This document shows, in pieces, positions 3,859 to 63,908 of a DNA stretch of 64,000 nucleotides. The DNA lies in contig OZ024747.1 in the NCBI GenBank assembly GCA_964016885.1, positions 1,426,001 through 1,490,000 of the forward strand, given 5' to 3'. A program made the translations under genes and the position numbers. The notes below the pieces were generated by a model that worked only from the letters and a program-made list of their open reading frames with translations, was not told the DNA's origin and searched no databases. Position 1 is the first letter of the stretch, and every line of letters starts with the position of its first letter. This DNA comes from Eledone cirrhosa. Its lineage: Eukaryota.

Positions 3859-4889
3859 TGACATTTAAAATGTATTGAGTTCTTTATCTTTGAAATTATA
3901 TATATATATATATATATGTATATAAAACATGAGAAGAAAGAATACTGCATGGTTGCACATGGGTTACATATGATAAAAATAGTCCTTCGTCAGTGATTTG
4001 CCAACCAGCATTGATATTTCATCGCATTAAAAATCATATACCTCAGGTTGGTGCGAGCAATAACTAAAAAAAGCTATTGGGACAAGTAAATCGCGTAAAG
4101 CGAGTGAGACAAGTAAACAACATAGAAGGATGAAAGCAACGCAAAGATGGGAATAAACAAGCAACATGGTTATCCGGTCAGCATAAGCTGGGTGGATTTC
4201 ATGAGCGATCAAGATACAGACCGTCGGACGTGAGTGAGATGTGAGCAAGAAGAGAACCCACTACTAGCCAAACGGGAGGAAGTGAGAAGGGGAGAATATA
4301 TATACATATATATAAATTTAGAGGCGGCCAACTCTTCCCTGTGTCAGCACAACGTTATAAGAAGTCAAAATAATACATATACTGGGTGGTTGAAAAGAAC
4401 CTCCCTATTGAAAAATACTGATAACTGTTGGCCCACTTTGATTGGCACAACATCAATGGCCCCATATTCATGCCAGATGAGGTCTTCTGTCTCAATTGGA
4501 GGAACTATTCCTCATGGACTGACCAACGTACAACGAGTTTACTGATGAAGTCAGTCTAGGATAAACCCAGACTATTACAAAAACTGATGAACAATGCTGG
4601 GGCCCATGTAGAATGTTAATACATTTACATTTCCCGACCCCTTTAACATGAGAGGCAAAGCTAACCTCGGCGAGATTTGAACCTGGAACGTAAGGAACGT
4701 AACTATATGCCACAAAGCATGTTGTCCGAAACTCTACCAATACTAGCAATCCACCTCCCTCACATCACCTATAATCAGTTGGTATAACCCTCAGTCCACA
4801 GGACGAATTTGGTACAAAGTAGTTCCACAACAAATTAACAAACCATAGTTGAGGACACGTGTTTCACCCGAAGGATACTTCAACCGGTC

Positions 4890-5075
4890 TCTCTCTCTCT
4901 ATATATTTGTATATATATATAACACTACTAACCTCTCTCTATATATATTTGTATATATATATAACACTACTAACCTCTCTCTCTATATATTTGTATATAT
5001 AACACTACTAACCTCTCTCTCTATATATTTGTATATATATATATATAACACTACTAACCTCTCTCTATATATATT

Positions 5076-6220: not shown

Positions 6221-6407
6221 AGAGACTATTCAGCCTTAATAATAATAATTGTTTCTACTTTTGACACAAGGCCAGCAATAGCCCAGTGTATCACTGGTAC
6301 ATTATTTTATCGACCCCGTAAGGATGAAAGGCAAAGTTAACCTCGGCGGGATTAATAATGATAATAATATATAAATATATAAGATGTAAGAATAAAACCG
6401 TCTCTTT

Positions 6408-10250: not shown

Positions 10251-10471
10251 GACATACACACATACATATGTATATACATACATTTACATCAATCCATCCA
10301 TATCTGTGTGTAAGCCGGTGTGTATATATATATACATATATATATATACATACATACATCCATATCTGTGTGTAAGCCGGTGTGTATATTATCCTGATAG
10401 AGAAAGAGACTGAGAATAAGGAGGGAGTCGAGTAAAAGATACACTGCTTAATATGGCAGTTAAAGACGTCA

Positions 10472-11492
10472 AGACCAGCTCATATCTACCCAGCCATCTA
10501 CCCAACACCAGTTCATATCTACTCAGCTGTCTACCCAACACCAGCTCATATCTACCCAGCCGTCTACCCAACACCAGCTCATACCTACCCAGCCATCTAC
10601 CCAACACCAGCTCATATCTACCCAACCATCTACCCAACACCAGCTCATATCTACCCATCCATCTACCCAACACCAGCTCATATCTACCCAGCCATCTACC
10701 CAAAACCAGCTCATACCTACCCAGCCATCTACCCAACACCAGCTCACATCTACCCAACCATCTACCCAACACCAGCTCATATCTACCCAACACCAGCTCA
10801 TATCTACCCAGCCATCTACCCAACACCAGCTCACATCTACCCAGCCATCTACCCAACACCAGCTCATATCTACCCAGCCGTCTACCCAACACCAGCTCAT
10901 ACCTACCCAGCCATCTACCCAACACCAGCTCATATCTACCCAGCCATCTACCCAACACCAGCTCATATCTACCCAGCCATCTACCCAACACCAGCTCATA
11001 TCTACCCATCCATCTACCCAACACCAGCTCATATCTACCCAGCCATCTACCCAACACCAGCTCATATCTACCCAGCCATCTACCCAACACCAGCTCATAT
11101 CTACCCAGCCGTCTACCCAACACCAGCTCATATCTACCCAGCCGTCTACCCAACACCAGCTCATATCTACCCAGCCGTCTACCCAACACCAGCTCATATC
11201 TACCCAGCCATCTACCCAACACCAGCTCATATCTACCCAGCCGTCTACCCAACACCAGCTCATATATACCCAGCCGTCTACCCAACACCAGCTCATATCT
11301 ACCCAGCCATCTACCCAACACCAGCTCATATCTACCCATCCATCTACCCAACACCAGCTCATATCTACCCAGCCATCTACCCAACACCAGCTCATATCTA
11401 CCCATCCATCTACCCAAAACCAGCTCATATCTACCCAGCATCTACCCAACACCAGCTCATATCTACCCATCCATCTACCCAACACCAGCCCC
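10472..11492. repeat. 33-bp minisatellite (~31 copies)
   Basis: Unit CCAGCTCATATCTACCCAGCCATCTACCCAACA. Confidence 0.95.
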
Positions 11493-11517
11493 AACCTTTA
11501 TGAAACATATAATTATA

Positions 11518-12474
11518 ACTAGACATGAAAAATGCGCAAGCTCAAAAGTGCCACAGAATGTTATTATAAACCTTCAAAAGTGTGGGACTAGAGTTGTTGC
11601 TAAAAAATATTGTAATCATTATATATCGTACATTCTGTGGCATCCTTTATAAAAATAGCTTAAACCAACGAAGCCTTTATTTTTACGCTATTTCACTTAG
11701 TTAATTCTTAGAGTGTAACATATAAAAATATGATTTACAACTATAAAATAAATTAATTAATATAATAACAGAGCTGCGGAGCTGAAATTTAGGAAATAAT
11801 GGAGTATCGGATCCTGAGTTGGAGCCAGTCAATTTTTAGCCGACTCCGCAGCCCTGTATAATACATTTCATATTAAAGTTATTAATAAACCTATTTTACA
11901 CTGCATGCAAATTACCATGAGATATTGATATTAGATATAAGATACAGCGCAATATCTACAGCTGTAAAAGTACGAAAGCGAAGTAATAATAAGTGGCTTA
12001 AGGTAATTCCAATATGAAAGTTTGTAGTGATAAAAATTTGATAATGCAATACGATTGTTAATATTATAGTTCTATGAAAATGTAACAATAGATAACTAAA
12101 TTATTTTACTATTAGTATATTTAAGAAATTATCATTATAGATTTGATCGTTCATATAAGCATCATATTAATTTTCAACACAATTATTTTGTTACTATGAG
12201 TATATGATAATAATATTACGTAATTATTTATAGCTGTTATTACATTAAACATAGATGTATTTATTTTTATATGTTACACTCTAAGAATTAACTAAGTGAA
12301 ATAGCGTAAAAATAAAGGCTTCGTTGGTTTAAGCTATTTTTATAAAGGATGCCACAGAATGTACGATATATAATGATTACAATATTTTTTAGCAACAACT
12401 CTAGTCCCACACTTTTGAAGGTTTATTATAACATTCTGTGGCACTTTTGAGCTTGCGCATTTTTCATGTCTAGT
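11518..12474. mobile_element. Foldback/MITE-like element with ~210-bp near-perfect terminal inverted repeats
   Basis: 11518-11730 is the reverse complement of 12262-12474; AT-rich interior with a small nested inverted repeat at ~11770-11856. Confidence 0.8.
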
Positions 12475-13695
12475 TTAATATTTTTTTAAGGCAACGCTTG
12501 TAATAACTCTAGTTAAACAGGATATATATTAATAATAAATTATCGTTGTAATGTAATTAGATTACATTTGTTATTATAAATTATCTTATAAATATTAGTG
12601 TAAGATGTATAAAAATATTTTCAGACTTTTAATATAAACAACTACAAAAAACAATCAATATTAAATCAATATATTATACATAATAGAAGACATAAAATAA
12701 ACAATACAAATACAAAATATTTACATACAATTGCAATTATCAGTGTATATACATTTTCTTTATATTCCCTGAGCAAATTAATAAGATTTGTTTTTATTGT
12801 ACATAATTTGATGACTTGTTGGTGTGTATTAAAAGATAGCAACAATTTGTGATTAAATTGTTATCTTAAGCAACTCACTTTTTAATAGTTGTTGGCTGAG
12901 CGAAATTGTAAAAGCCTATGAGCAAATATAAAAACAAATACACAAACAACATTTCCTTGTGTTATTACAACATTAGATAAAATAATTGAGCAATGTCGTT
13001 ATATTTTGCTCTTATTGCACATTAATAGTGTTTCTATTTTTCGGCACAAATCCATTACGGCAGTCCATTACTGGTACTTTATTTTATCGAATTAGTAAGT
13101 ATGAAAGTCGAAGTTAACCTCGGCAGGATTTGAACTTAGAATGCAAAGGACCATAACAATACTGCAAAGCATGGTGTCTGACGCTCTACCAATACTTGTG
13201 TTGAGCTGGTCATTAATTTATGGTGGTCGTGCGTGGAGTAGAGCAATCGCTAGTTGAAATATTATGAACAAAACATTTTTATTTGCCGAAGAACATATTT
13301 TCAATACTGTTTGTGAATGTGACGAAGGAAATACATTCTGATATGGAACAGTGTACAAAGTGTGTCTGTGAATAACATAATGTTACCTCATGTTGTTGTC
13401 AAGACATAATGGATTTCGTTTATCCAGTTAGAAGATGAAACCTAGCCATCTCGGATTAGTTATATTTCATGCCATGTGTAAACGTGTTTGAGGATAGCAA
13501 AATATGCGTGTTTCTTGTCTGGAAACTTTCTGCTAAACAAATTTGTTTCAGTATATATTTAATATAATATTAATATATTTTGTAATATTATTAACTAATT
13601 ATTATAATTAGCGCTTCAGGCTTTGTCTATATACTGAAACAAATTTGTAAGTCATTACCTAATTAAACTCTTTGCTTGAAATTTTATCATTCTTC

Positions 13696-21036: not shown

Positions 21037-21238
21037 GTATATATATGTATATATATGTATGTATAAATATATATATATGTATAAATATATATATATATAT
21101 AAGTTATTCCGGGTTGAATCGGAGGTAACCACAGTAATTAGGGTACTCAATACATAGCAGAGTATAAAAGTTTTAATATAGAAGAGCTTTTACAGGACTA
21201 GAACTGTTTCTGAAACAGTTCTTGTCCTATAGAAGCTC

Positions 21239-21309
<71 letters not shown>

Positions 21310-21664
21310 CAAAAGTTCTATTTAAATTGTTGGGATACAACAAGCAAATATTTTTATAACTGATATAAAGCACTCGACAAGTATTTGGAGTAGATATACG
21401 ATATTAATAAATGGAAACTATATTTATAAAACCATATTTATTTCATTATACATATTTCAAGGATACCATGTTAAATTATGGTATGCCTTCATCAGACAAA
21501 ATACAATATATACCAGTTTTATAAATAAACATTGACGTACCCTTTCAAAATGCGACCGTTACTTTTGGAAGACATCCTGATAGACTATCCTGATGTCTTC
21601 CAAAAGTAACGGTCGCATTTTGAAAGGGTACGTCAATGTTTATTTATAAAACTGGTATATATTG

Positions 21665-21729
21665 TATTTTGTCTGATGAAGGCATACCATAATTTAACAT
21701 GGTATCCTTGAAATATGTATAATGAAATA
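21665..21729 (+). ncRNA. Minimal type I hammerhead motif (palindrome ~21306-21770; mirror copy on - strand ~21439-21503)
   Basis: UAUUUUGU CUGAUGA AGG-C-AUACCAU..AUGGUAU-CCU-U GAA A-UAUGUA-U A AUGAAAUA. Confidence 0.82.
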
Positions 21730-21768
21730 AATATGGTTTTATAAATATAGTTTCCATTTATTAATATC

Positions 21769-21818
<50 letters not shown>

Positions 21819-22516: not shown

Positions 22517-23005
22517 ATCAATGTTTGCACATATAATTCACCTCCTATTCAACTGAACAATAATATAGATACATATAAATTGATGTTGTGAGCAACAGTT
22601 TCGTATTTACAGGGTGGGATGGACGCGACATATATTTTATGAGAATTGTACCATAATTGTACAAGCATTCAAGTTCAAATGTTGCATGTATTCCACCCCG
22701 TGCTTTTGATTTTGATTTTGATTTTGATTTAATTTTGATTTTAATTTGAACTTGAATGCTTGTACAATTATGGTACAATTCTCGTAAAATATATGTCGCA
22801 TCCATCCCCCCCCCCCTGTAAATACGAAACTGTTGCTCAATACATCAATTTATATGTATCTATATTATTGTTCAGCTGAATAGGAGGTGAATTATATGTG
22901 CAAACATTGATAATACTCCGATGATTCCAAACGAGAGTATGGAAGAAACGATTGTCAGCTATTAAATGATTTGAACACAACTTTGATAATTGTATAATTT
23001 ATTGA

Positions 23006-23039
<34 letters not shown>

Positions 23040-23050
23040 AATAAATATCT

Positions 23051-23180
<130 letters not shown>

Positions 23181-23188
23181 ATATATAT

Positions 23189-23394
<206 letters not shown>

Positions 23395-23409
23395 AATAGA
23401 TACACACAG

Positions 23410-23471
<62 letters not shown>

Positions 23472-23516
23472 AACCTGTGTTTGTACTGCCTCTCTGTTTT
23501 GTTCCCGTTCCATTTT

Positions 23517-23582
<66 letters not shown>

Positions 23583-23604
23583 CATAAATATTTATATATA
23601 TATG

Positions 23605-23637
<33 letters not shown>

Positions 23638-23659
23638 CATAAATATTTATATATATATG

Positions 23660-23703
<44 letters not shown>

Positions 23704-23794
23704 GTGAGGTTTTTTTTATAAAATGAAAAATAACCGAGGTGTCCTACACGAGTGAAAGATGTGAGAAAAACCACAGACCCTCCATCTCAACTCA

Positions 23795-23832
23795 CCTTTT
23801 GAAAAGCAGAAGAACTGCGAAACCGGTAAAGG
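23795..23832 (+). ncRNA. Hammerhead-like motif with U3-A8 covariant core
   Basis: CCUU UUGAAAA GCAG-AAGAA-CUGC GAA A-CCGG-U A AAGG; family copies at ~26680-26720(-), ~34920-34957(+), ~48178-48214(+). Confidence 0.65.
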
Positions 23833-23901
23833 AACCAAATAAATATATATATTTAAAAAAAAAATAAGACTCCAGTTGCATTTTCGATTTCATCTCTTTT
23901 T

Positions 23902-23969
<68 letters not shown>

Positions 23970-24186
23970 AATATTTATATATATATGTATATTTATAATA
24001 TTTATATATATACATATATATATCTATATATATATATATATTTATGTAAATATATATATATACAGTATATATATACACACATAAAGACATATATATATAT
24101 TTACGTTCATATATATATACAGTATATATATATATACACACATAAATATATACATATATATATACATAAATATTTATATATATATG

Positions 24187-24223
<37 letters not shown>

Positions 24224-24759: not shown

Positions 24760-25250
24760 AACCTAGATACAATGCAGCAGTTTAAATATTAGGGGACCTT
24801 AGTTAGTGATGAAGGGTCAAAACTAGAATTCCTTAAAACAACCTCGCAGATAATGACTGCATTAACCAGAATGAAGCCAATGGGGAAAGAGAGGAACATC
24901 ACAATAAATAATTGTTTCTACTTTTGGCACAAGGCCAGCAATTACCTCCAGTGTATTACTGGTACTTTATTTTATCGACCTCGTAAGGATGAAAGGCAAA
25001 GTTAATCTCGGCGGGATTTGAACTCAGAATGGCAAGGGCCGTAACTCTATGCGTCAAAGCATGGCGTCCGACCCTCTGCCAATACTGCCAATCCGAGATT
25101 AGACTCCATTGGTTAATAGTACTCTCTTGTTTCCTGTACGCATGCGTGGTATGAAACCTCGTCTCTGTAGAGATGCAGTGGAAGGTTCGAGAAATTAAAC
25201 GTTACCGCAATATCTTAGACATCTCTTACATAGATTCATATCATAAACAA
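24760..25250 (+). mobile_element. Highly decayed RTE-like RT fragment interrupted by a SINE
   Basis: Remnants FKY*G/LVSDEGSKLEFL and LFLYAC..FE..RYRNILDISYID flank the SINE at 24910-25092. Confidence 0.45.
24910..25092 (-). mobile_element. tRNA-derived SINE (abundant family)
   Basis: A-box-like GGCAGTATTGG, B-box GAGTTCAAATCC, central GCCTTTCATCCTTACG(A/G)GGTCGATAAAATAAAGTACCAG, tail GGCCTTGTGCCAAAAGTAGAAACAA. Other full or partial copies at ~4645-4750, 6245-6352, 13010-13195, 14113-14160, 62195-62280, 62838-62915, 63155-63280, 63720-63817. Confidence 0.88.
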
Positions 25251-26461: not shown

Positions 26462-26613
<152 letters not shown>

Positions 26614-26754
26614 AAAAAAAGATAAAATCGAAAATGCAACTGGAATCTTATTTAAAAAAATATATATATATTTATTTGGTTCCTTTACCGGTTTCGCAGT
26701 TCTTCTGCTTTTCAAAAGTAGAGTTGAGATGGAGGGTCTGTAGTTTTTCTCACA

Positions 26755-26796
<42 letters not shown>

Positions 26797-26831: not shown

Positions 26832-27049
26832 ATAGGAACGAGTAGGACCCCGACGGCTGAGCTCAAGCCGTTTCGACGGCTAATTCTGGACTAAATCAAG
26901 TCCAGATTTAGTCCAGAATTAGCCGTCGAAACGGCTTGAGCTCAGCCGTCGGGGTCCTACTCGTTCCTATTACCCACTCTACTACCCTAAGTATTGAGTA
27001 CTTTTGTGCGTTATGGTCCACCTGGTTCCTTACCACATTTCCTTCGTTA
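26832..27049. mobile_element. Palindromic (TA)n-flanked element carrying the 3' half of a hammerhead
   Basis: GAA ACGGCU-UGAGCUC-AGCCGU C GGGGUCC; the inversion centre lies in the presumed stem II. Copies at 46000-46193, 48371-48558, 26335-26465, 62510-62560, 38385-38465. Confidence 0.75.
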
Positions 27050-27058
27050 CATATATAT

Positions 27059-27554: not shown

Positions 27555-27689
<135 letters not shown>

Positions 27690-27815
27690 GTTATTCCGGG
27701 TTGAATCGGAGGTAACCACAGTAAGTAAGGTACTCAATACATAGCAGAGTATAACAGTTTTAATATAGATGAGATTCTACAGGACTAGAACTGTTTCATT
27801 CATTAGAAATCATCA

Positions 27816-27868
27816 GAGATTCCTGATGATTTCTAATGAATGAAACAGTTCTAGTCCTGTAGAATCTC
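27816..27868 (+). ncRNA. Type I hammerhead ribozyme motif (palindrome ~27688-27882)
   Basis: GAGAUUC CUGAUGA UUUC-UAAU-GAAU GAA ACAG-UUCUAGUC-CUGU A GAAUCUC; perfect 7-bp stem I, GUA triplet. Confidence 0.85.
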
Positions 27869-27892
27869 ATCTATATTAAAACTATATATATA

Positions 27893-48006: not shown

Positions 48007-48118
<112 letters not shown>

Positions 48119-48556
48119 GTTTTTCTCACACATATATATATATGTGAGAAAAACCACAGACCCTCCATCTCAACTCTACTTTTGAAAAGCAGAAGAATTG
48201 CGAAACCGGTAAAGGAACCAAATAAATATATATATCTTTTAGCAATAAGACTCCAGTTGCATTTTCGATTTCATCTTTTTTTCTTTATACTTTCACTCGT
48301 GTAGGACACCTCGGTTATTTTTCATTTTGTAAAAAAAACCTGACTTTCTAATATATTATATATATATATATAACGAAGGAAATGTGGTAAGGAACCAGGT
48401 GGACCATAACGCACCAAAGTACTCAATACTTAGGGTAGTAGAGTGGGTAATAGGAACGAGTAGGACCCCGACGGCTGAGCTCAAGCCGTTTCAACGGCTA
48501 ATTCTAATTAGCCGTCGAAACGGCTTGAGCTCAGCCGTCGGGGTCCTACTCGTTCC

Positions 48557-55920: not shown

Positions 55921-58265
55921 AACCCTTTAGTTACCAACCCAGCCAACCCAGCTCTGGTTCTATGAAATAAAACCATCCATTTTAACCCTTTAGTTACCAA
56001 CCCAGCCAAAGCCAGCTCTGGTTCTATGAAATAAAACCACCCATTTTAACCCTTTAGTTACCAACCCAGCCAACCCAGCTCTGGTTCTATGAAATAAAAC
56101 CACCCATTTTAACCCTTTAGTTACCAACCCAGACAACCCAGCTCTGGTTCTATGAAATAAAACCACCCATTTTAACCCTTTACTTACCAACCCAGCCAAC
56201 CCAGCTCTGGTTCTATGAAATAAAACCACCCATTTTAACCCTTTAGTTACCAACCCAGCCAACCCAGCTCTGGTTCTATGAAATAAAACCACCCATTTTA
56301 ACCCTTTAGTTACCAACCCAGCCAACCCAGCTCTGGTTCTATGAAATAAAACCACCCATTTTAACCCTTTACTTACCAACCCAGCCAACCCAGCTCTGGT
56401 TCTATGAAATAAAACCACCCATTTTAACCCTTTACTTACCAACCCAGCCAAAGCCAGCTCTGGTTCTATGAAATAAAACCACCCATTTTAACCCTTTACT
56501 TACCAACCCAGCCAACCCAGCTCTAGTTCTATGAAATAAAACCACCCATTTTAACCCTTTAGTTACCAACCCAGCCAACCCAGCTCTGGTTCTATGAAAT
56601 AAAACCACCCATTTTAACCCTTTAGTTACCAACCCAGCCAACCCAGCTCTGGTTCTATGAAATAAAACCACCCATTTTAACCCTTTACTTACCAACCCAG
56701 CCAACCCAGCTCTGGTTCTATGAAATAAAACCACCCATTTTAACCCTTTACTTACCAACCCAGCCAACCCAGCTCTGGTTCTATGAAATAAAACCACCCA
56801 TTTTAACCCTTTAGTTACCAACCCAGCCAAAGCCAGCTCTGGTTCTATGAAATAAAACCACCCATTTTAACCCTTTACTTACCAACCCAGCCAACCCAGC
56901 TCTAGTTCTATGAAATAAAACCACCCATTTTAACCCTTTAGTTACCAACCCAGCCAACCCAGCTCTGGTTCTATGAAATAAAACCACCCATTTTAACCCT
57001 TTAGTTACCAACCCAGCCAAAGCCAGCTCTGGTTCTATGAAATAAAACCACCCATTTTAACCCTTTACTTACCAACCCAGCCAACCCAGCTCTGGTTCTA
57101 TGAAATAAAACCACCCATTTTAACCCTTTACTTACCAACCCAGCCAACCCAGCTCTGGTTCTATGAAATAAAACCACCCATTTTAACCCTTTAGTTACCA
57201 ACCCAGCCAAAACCAGCTCTGGTTCTATGAAATAAAACCACCCATTTTAACCCTTTAGTTACCAACCCAGCCAACCCAGCTCTGGTTCTATGAAATAAAA
57301 CCACCCATTTTAACCCTTTACTTACCAACCCAGCCAACCCAGCTCTGGTTCTATGAAATAAAACCACCCATTTTAACCCTTTAGTTACCAACCCAGCCAA
57401 AACCAGCTCTGGTTCTATGAAATAAAACCACCCATTTTAACCCTTTAGTTACCAACCCAGCCAAAGCCAGCTCTGGTTCTATGAAATAAAACCACCCATT
57501 TTAACCCTTTACTTACCAACCCAGCCAACCCAGCTCTGGTTCTATGAAATAAAACCACCCATTTTAACCCTTTAGTTACCAACCCAGCCAAAACCAGCTC
57601 TGGTTCTATGAAATAAAACCACCCATTTTAACCCTTTAGTTACCAACCCAGCCAACCCAGCTCTGGTTCTATGAAATAAAACCACCCATTTTAACCCTTT
57701 AGTTACCAACCCAGCCAAAACCAGCTCTGGTTCTATGAAATAAAACCACCCATTTTAACCCTTTAGTTACCAACCCAGCCAAAGCCAGCTCTGGTTCTAT
57801 GAAATAAAACCACCCATTTTAACCCTTTACTTACCAACCCAGCCAACCCAGCTCTGGTTCTATGAAATAAAACCACCCATTTTAACCCTTTACTTACCAA
57901 CCCAGCCAACCCAGCTCTGGTTCTATGAAATAAAACCACCCATTTTAACCCTTTAGTTACCAACCCAGCCAAAACCAGCTCTGGTTCTATGAAATAAAAC
58001 CACCCATTTTAACCCTTTAGTTACCAACCCAGCCAAAGCCAGCTCTGGTTCTATGAAATGAAACCATCCATTTTAACCCTTTAGTTACCAACCCAGCCAA
58101 CCCAGCTCTGGTTCTATGAACTAAAACCACCCATTTTAACCCTTTAGTTACCAACCCAGCCAACCCAGCTCTGGTTCTATGATATAAAACCACCCATTTT
58201 AACCCTTTAGTTACCAACCCAGCCAACCCAGCTCTGGTTCTATGATATAAAACCACCCATTTTAA
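55921..58265. repeat. 63/64-bp minisatellite (~37 copies)
   Basis: Unit AACCCTTTAGTTACCAACCCAGCCAACCCAGCTCTGGTTCTATGAAATAAAACCACCCATTTT. Confidence 0.96.
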
Positions 58266-59389: not shown

Positions 59390-60058
59390 ATCTGAGTTCA
59401 AATCCTGCCGAGGTTGACTTTGCCTTTCATCCTTACGGGGTCGATAAAATAAAGTACCAGTAATGCACTGAGTAATTGCTGGCCTTGTGCCTAAAGTAGA
59501 AACAATTATTTTAGGGCAGTATCGTTAGAGAGTCGGACGCCATGCTTTCCAGCATAGTTACGTCCCTTTACGGTCTGAGTTCAAATCCCGCCGAGGTTTC
59601 TTTGCCTTTCATCCTTACAGGGTCGATAAAATAAAGTACCAGTAATGCACTGGGTAATTGCTGGCCTTGTGCCTAAAGTAGAAACAATTATTTTAGGGCA
59701 GTATCGTTAGAGAGTCGGACGCCATGCTTTCCAGCATAGTTACGTCCCTTTACGGTCTGAGTTCAAATCCCGCCGAGGTTTCTTTGCCTTTCATCCTTAC
59801 AGGGTCGATAAAATAAAGTACCAGTAATGCACTGGGTAATTGCTGGCCTTGTGCCTAAAGTAGAAACAATTATTTTAGGGCAGTATCGTTAGAGAGTCGG
59901 ACGCCATGCTTTCCAGCATAGTTACGTCCCTTTACGGTCTGAGTTCAAATCCCGCCGAGGTTTCTTTGCCTTTCATCCTTACAGGGTCGATAAAATAAAG
60001 TACCAGTAATGCACTGAGTAATTGCTGGCCTTGTGCCTAAAGTAGAAACAATTATTTT
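59390..60058 (+). repeat. Head-to-tail tandem SINE array (182-bp period, 3 full copies plus 1 partial)
   Basis: Units start GGGCAGTATCG at 59514, 59696 and 59878 and are nearly identical. Confidence 0.9.
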
Positions 60059-60337
60059 AGTTTTATAACTGACTACCTTTTATTTTCTCTAACCTTGGTG
60101 TTCCTGTCTCTATTTCTACTCCCGAAGAAGGGCCAAACCCCTAAATATATATATATATAACAACAACCTTATATACATATACACATACATAAAATCATTA
60201 TTTAAGTTAGAAACCACCACGTTGAATTCAAAGGAATGAGTTGGTTGTTTTGATTTGAGATGGAGGAGGGGGAGGGGGGGCTGTTTTTTAAAAGGTGAGA
60301 TTCATTTGTGATTTTTCAGCTTAGAGTAAATTTAGCG

Positions 60338-63678: not shown

Positions 63679-63817
63679 TTACATATATAAGAGGTAGATT
63701 CATACTCCATTAAATGGAGCGAGGTTAACTTTGCCTTTCATCCTTACGGGGTCGATAAAATAAAGTACCAGTAATACACTGAATAATTGGTGGCCTTGTG
63801 CCAAAAGTAGAAACAAT

Positions 63818-63908
<91 letters not shown>

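Follow-up and report, generated by a model that had tools for sequence, protein, structure and literature searches.

How does the 3' tail of a repeat come to lie reverse-complemented in front of its own body, with a (TA)n tract on either side? This arrangement had been proposed for positions 23697..23905 of the 64-kb stretch of DNA analysed here (the window), with the suggestion that both strands of a cut (TA)n target had acted as primers for reverse transcription, with one start at the RNA 3' end and the other at an internal UA microhomology, and that the two cDNAs had then joined head-to-head. Re-reading of the sequence and self-alignment of the window bear out the order (TA)n, inverted tail, body, (TA)n. 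The tail-side (TA)n flank (23670..23697) lies inside a longer degenerate TA array (23005-24223) and is followed by the inverted tail on the minus strand (23698..23758; element positions ~151-211, where position 1 is window position 34884), which is the reverse complement of 35033-35094 (95%) and 48290-48350 (97%). The body, on the plus strand (23757..23903; positions -1 to ~146), aligns directly with 34882-35027 and 48144-48284 and stops at an internal TATA site (147-150), ending at 23903 with cttata where an intact copy has ctttata ahead of its tail; the second (TA)n flank follows (23904..23965). Between body and tail only the TATA at 147-150 is absent, and the two arms have in common a 2-nt AG (23757..23758), at which they meet head-to-head; sister inverted-tail junctions likewise fall at AG. 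Within the body are a predicted hammerhead-like motif of minimal type I (23795..23832, plus strand), with a U3-A8 core and palindromic helix III, and an internal (TA)5 run (23843..23852, plus strand), which is almost never an arm end and serves as a control.

Three further copies of the same family lie in the window: a solo body without tail between TA runs (26611..26756, minus strand), a body plus tail that starts ~30 nt further upstream (34851..35094, plus strand), and a short inverted stub (~48115-48130) followed by body plus tail (48115..48350, plus strand). The latter two, at 34884 and 48142, had been regarded as intact family members with a ~65-nt tail; they do read body then tail, but the tail is 61 nt plus TA, both are just the last ~214-245 nt of a 4.7-kb element, and the 48142 copy has the inverted stub. 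With four copies in the 64-kb window and only two more in the adjoining 400 kb (C7:1226001-1690000), we sampled position-ordered pattern matches instead. Elements are frequently nested within one another's TA flanks, and tail-only insertions from an internal TA site occur between TA runs (38385-38464 and L013 in a second family, B; L159 in family A).

By its sequence, the source family is the pseudo-LTR (pLTR) of this 4.7-kb element, a Penelope-like element (PLE), which the earlier reader had not recognised. Extending family copies upstream leads into a GIY-YIG frame, and full copies are ~4.7-kb units in partial tandem with the order pLTR, tail, ATATATA, short UTR, 400-aa ORF1, and an overlapping RT plus GIY-YIG frame, with a second pLTR 4.4-4.9 kb further on in 9/10 full copies examined. 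PLE RT motifs (GLKF, DKG, FDVVNLY, YLDD) are found in ORF2 of L303. The match to PF00078 (RT) has an E of 1.3e-6 and, at 28.7 bits, is slightly below the cut-off of 29.6, while that to PF01541 (GIY-YIG) is above its cut-off, with CxxC ahead of the YIG and downstream histidines recognised by eye. A CX2-5CxxC linker precedes the endonuclease (EN) in L031 and L300 and is absent from the L303 copy; it is common to Neptune and Nematis, and hence not diagnostic alone. Among named proteins, the closest (73% identity over 55% of the query) is one from Octopus bimaculoides; the protein matches carry no clade names, and the element probably belongs to the Neptune clade. The reverse-transcribed origin assumed by the original prediction thus holds, this being a retroelement with RT and GIY-YIG. 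The pLTR anatomy of an EN+ PLE is present (partial tandems, an inverted copy, a one-sided tail), and both the element class and this outline of inverted pLTR and one-sided tail are already known rather than new. 'Kiri' (L2 elements) was dropped as an identity, since a search gave nothing relevant and the ORF is RT plus GIY-YIG.

A hammerhead descriptor scan of the window gave six matches, four of them in the PLE family, compared with 0-2 in 10 shuffles, and a U3-A8 hammerhead variant has been reported in PLEs (PMC4209133, from the portion available). In an Rfam scan of the window, simple repeats matched by miRNA models accounted for nearly all of the best 150 of 410 rows; these 150 were all below gathering score, with no hammerhead among them. 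Canonical CUGANGA-core hammerhead-like motifs are present in other TA-flanked repeats (36556-36661, 38227-38330, and ~1299 on the minus strand). In L298-L307, ~1,130 nt past the ATG, ORF1 and the RT frame, which is offset by -1, have 88 nt in common; ORF1 is 400 aa in 5/10 copies, and a T-TTT-TTA heptamer at the overlap is kept in 8/10, which likely represents a programmed -1 frameshift. An optional ORF1 frameshift is drawn for PLEs in Fig. 1 of PMC8557442. Two further frames with endonuclease-like ends by eye are found at L031:2075-2491 and 4040-5008, one inside an inverted duplication; they are probably other PLE clades, and a Pfam search with the longer of the two gave no match.

The genome, of 3.0 Gb, contains 6,210 exact matches to the tail core, and so at least 6,210 tails. 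Using the first 100 body matches along C1 to one subfamily pattern (7,527 matches genome-wide), we found 57/100 outer ends at position 214 plus TA, 38/100 at 149 plus TA, and 5 otherwise. Mapping of arm ends, as suggested with the original prediction, in this sample puts 95/100 arms at one of two sites, both TA-like. These 100 matches form 75 loci, 42 of them two-armed (5 being long pairs without junction placement), and all 40 two-armed loci that could be classed combine one 149 end with one 214 end, with none having two alike; the other two of the 42 have an unclassed short end. Under independent site choice at most 50% would be mixed (p 9e-13). Likewise, among 60 loci selected by their junctions, 3 of which overlap the first sample, 57 were mixed, one was 149/149, one 214/214 (the same-end loci L208 and L212) and one unclassed.

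The two sites have TA homology of 4 nt (TATA, 149) and 7 nt (ATATATA, 214), and both are internal in the full element and upstream of the ATG; site 214 is internal because in full copies the tail continues through ATATATA into the 5' UTR and ORF1. Priming at the RNA 3' end, as first formulated, is not supported by this position, though the transcript of a solo copy could end there, after the tail. Nor is a choice of site by TA microhomology supported: across the genome, 15 copies end at the longer (TA)5-6 run (~84-95), compared with at least 1,447 at site 149 (one variant). Of 119 sampled arms, a sample biased by its choice through downstream motifs, none ends at that run. TA homology alone hence does not select the site; it helps at most, and position decides.

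Of the inner ends, 46/100 lie at -5 to +14; this natural boundary, at about -2 to +14, may be a transcription start. A pattern search for the inverted-tail form gave 27 matches, and in 26 of them the partner arm has no tail (L168 and L189 possibly being one locus assembled twice, and L175 terminating in a TC repeat). Most breakpoints of this form are at AG overlaps between 126 and 153. The head-to-head joins, with their short overlaps, and the recurrence of the form at 26 loci support the earlier interpretation. In classic twin priming, the first cDNA is expected to end where the second primer sits. The window locus looks like the clean reciprocal product of such an event on one RNA, primed first at the 3' end and then at any internal UA, with body to ~146, tail from 151 and only TATA lost, and in the pairs listed both arms of a locus carry the same subfamily letters. 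Position 151 is joined directly to the body start in only 2/27 junctions, though (the window locus and L187), and tail-arm breakpoints number 26 at 126-155, ~44 at 85-115 and ~78 at 45-75, the latter two scaled from 30 loci read in each control window (19/30 of 69 and 14/30 of 168). Across these three windows we found no peak of breakpoints at the second site (145-155), with similar anchor conservation in each (13/22, 17/26 and 20/25), so the blocking expected of LINE-1-style priming is not seen and the inverted-tail form is the thin end of a continuum. The original reading as a twin-priming product therefore stands for two opposed segments joined head-to-head and fails for a first cDNA halted near the second primer. 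With site 214 internal in full copies and the best UA run almost unused, we consider LINE-1-type twin priming improbable here. The hammerhead cut was also rejected as the 5' end: 5/100 inner ends lie at 71-73, but breakpoints over 45-75 were evenly spread in 30 loci.

Either arm may be the more truncated. Among 35 short two-armed loci, with three that break inside the T/A run set aside, 16 are near-symmetric, 5 have the tail arm clearly more truncated and 6 the tail-less arm; two junction windows gave 19 vs 9 and 14 vs 15 for tail arm vs tail-less arm. What is new here is that 95/100 ends lie at two TA-like sites, that each locus has one of each, and that either arm may be more truncated. The one-of-each ends and the near-symmetric loci are directly accounted for if a single cDNA primed at 214 folds back and copies itself, with the hairpin resolved at TATA 147-150 by an endonuclease cut or by annealing to the other target end, and tail-short forms arising when the tail arm loses sequence as the element inserts or later. 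Self-priming is already proposed for head-to-head PLE palindromes in PMC3846280, as is EN-mediated resolution for the tail in PMC8557442. Part of the palindrome centre is also retained at some junctions (e.g. L168, L178, L190, L209), which fits loss of sequence inside one arm after the palindrome was complete equally as well as snap-back during joining. Yet a hairpin from a single tail-primed cDNA cannot shorten the tail arm below its copy, and roughly every second asymmetric locus would require a further deletion, since the tail arm is the more truncated about as often as the reverse.

Fold-back also fits poorly with the internal sequence of the arms. After the internal TA repeat, at 23853-23866 in the window and in all family copies, there is a T-run followed by an A-run, whose total length is equal in both arms at 19/26 loci, while the T/A boundary is identical between arms in only 4/26 and uncorrelated. 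So rarely common a boundary favours two separate copying passes, although it may also shift after insertion; transient misalignment or template switching could possibly account for the shifts. Divergence between arms is not higher at asymmetric loci (mismatches 9/722 and 14/656) than at symmetric ones (15/776; Fisher p 0.73, with little power), so the asymmetric loci do not appear older, which likewise, if weakly, favours separate passes. Taken with these points, fold-back from a single priming event seems to us rather unlikely, though the 16/35 near-symmetric loci, which it also predicts, count against priming from two ends, as do the two same-end loci. At the junctions of L080, L090 and L209 there are signs of templated end-joining: the 5' end of the body copied again in tandem, a small palindrome that was captured, or 70 nt of foreign sequence caught between two tail ends.

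The inversions and palindromes might instead be amplification or assembly chimeras, and the window junction itself is spanned without a skip by only 1/75 reads in X18, with no listed contig piece covering it. Ends fixed at two sites with one-of-each asymmetry argue against chimeras, as do 26 loci with many different junctions, and a sister inverted-tail junction with a 6-nt skip was recovered from unassembled Illumina data for three further samples, produced in a separate study (61, 74 and 90 reads; RAD-seq, with one start in X17). The window junction is not clearly bridged; overall, we regard chimeras as highly improbable. Searches for empty target sites (105 insertions, 124 insertions and 18 candidates) showed no intermediate or empty allele, which counts against the two-ended model: the first gave 0/105, and the 7/124 and the 18 candidates were simple-repeat or nested artefacts. 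Any target-site duplication would be hidden in the (TA)n. Flanks that abut repeats (39/129) mostly have no TA at that place in other copies of the repeat, but truncated neighbouring elements explain those inspected, so they carry no weight here. For 105 two-armed insertions, the (TA)n flanks had a median length of 33 nt per side.

We think it reasonably probable that the locus is a short two-armed pLTR copy for which both cut (TA)n ends primed reverse transcription, one at each of the fixed TA-like sites. Family identity, arm ends at 149 or 214 with both kinds at each locus, inner ends that vary independently and short overlaps at the joins are observed, and from them we infer the priming steps. 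The GIY-YIG endonuclease would cut both strands within the (TA)n target, after which one target 3' end would pair with AUAUAUA after the tail and the other with UAUA at 147-150, the sites being chosen by position (set by protein or by RNA fold) and the TA match playing an auxiliary part. Each cDNA would then extend toward the RNA 5' end, often to the boundary at ~-2 to +14 but stopping independently, and the two cDNA 3' ends would be united by microhomology end-joining. Two long cDNAs would yield an asymmetric palindrome, and a tail-primed cDNA halting after ~61 nt would yield the 23698-23903 locus. The earlier proposal that both cut strands prime is to this extent supported, by the one-of-each ends and by truncation of either arm. 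More tentatively, and with somewhat less than even confidence, we suggest that PLEs integrate by programmed two-ended priming, in which each cut end is assigned a different internal RNA site, tail and inverted pLTR are two cDNAs, and in (TA)n families both sites pair with the target in the manner of a telomerase template. Bolder still, and speculative, is the idea that the RT copies the UA template repeatedly and in this way extends or writes the (TA)n flanks.

Other repeat families in the window form similar asymmetric palindromes: family B (26835..27050; also 46002-46191 and 48373-48556) with two fixed ends, family D (21307..21769; also 37432-37891 and 45380-45729) with two end zones, and family C (21102..21241; also 27689-27882 and 31084-31300) with more scattered ends. 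Two end zones are found in families B, D, E and F, while G and H have few matches. The short-arm ends at 46193, 48558, 26832, 21770, 45731 and 21243 read as had been claimed. In families B-H we read 14 such ends in the window, 13 of them resolvable (31084 was left out, and two were anchored by eye), and at least 2 alternating TA letters are common with the long-arm continuation in 11/13 and at least 3 in 8/13, compared with null values of 0.26 and 0.14 per end, same-family copies not being independent. No RT/EN ORF linked to families B-H was found within the 1.3-1.4 Mb examined. The window also contains perfect 214-nt inverted repeats at 11517-11730 and 12262-12475, 531 nt apart, MITE-like and without (TA)n flanks; a dispersed ~180-nt SINE-like repeat (6244-6353, 24906-25090, 41436-41613, 59391-60060 and 63720-63819), which occurs as a 182-nt tandem array too; and minisatellites at 10470-11489 and 55921-58265, with periods of 33 nt and ~63 nt.

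The origin of PLE inverted repeats and the one-sided tail is called open in PMC8557442, and PMC11167929 leaves the later integration steps unvalidated. In this genome there are thousands of young copies, with arms ~1-2% apart, whose ends can be counted, and it is counts of one-of-each ends, of independent truncation and of the missing stop at the second site that separate the models; the tail-inverted form is a class that a pure fold-back model cannot make. A two-ended priming model for PLEs was not found in the literature searched, which covers few subscription papers.

For PLEs, PMC8557442 and PMC3846280 describe copies that are inverted and 5'-truncated, a tail on one side and targets made of (TA)n. 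As in the Neptune and Nematis EN+ PLEs covered there, the element described here combines RT with a C-terminal GIY-YIG, a Zn-finger-like linker, partial tandems and a hammerhead in the pLTR, and shares with them the inverted 5'-truncated copy, the tail on one end only, (TA)n among preferred targets and an optional ORF1 frameshift. It differs in its tail of ~61-65 nt, compared with 30-40 nt in those elements, and in having loci where one arm consists of the tail alone, a form not described in the passages of those papers drawn on here; they propose self-priming or EN resolution rather than two-ended priming. In vitro work on an anole PLE (PAc, Poseidon of Anolis carolinensis; PMC11167929, in part) showed both strands cut and extended, with RT starting at two internal sites that define the tail, which speaks for the two-ended model; as here, the two starts bracket the tail, the target is AT-rich and the hammerhead lies upstream of the sites. 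The PAc start sites are inside the ORF, without target homology or strand preference, whereas those found here are upstream of the ATG, have TA homology of 4 and 7 nt and occur one of each per locus; the lack of a strand difference or start-target homology in PAc counts against the two-ended model here. As in LINE-1 twin priming (bioRxiv 10.1101/2024.12.14.628481, consulted in excerpt), both target ends would prime, and an inverted 5' part is joined head-to-head to a 3' part. Unlike LINE-1, priming does not take place at a poly(A) 3' end, the position of the second site is fixed with no breakpoint cluster there, and in most cases an overlap between the arms of as much as 150 nt or more gives palindromes. 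Finally, non-LTR retrozymes are likewise short, non-coding, hammerhead-bearing copies from PLE pLTRs, but the available portion of bioRxiv 10.64898/2026.07.22.740005 describes them as head-to-tail tandem arrays, whereas the copies described here are head-to-head pairs or solos in (TA)n.
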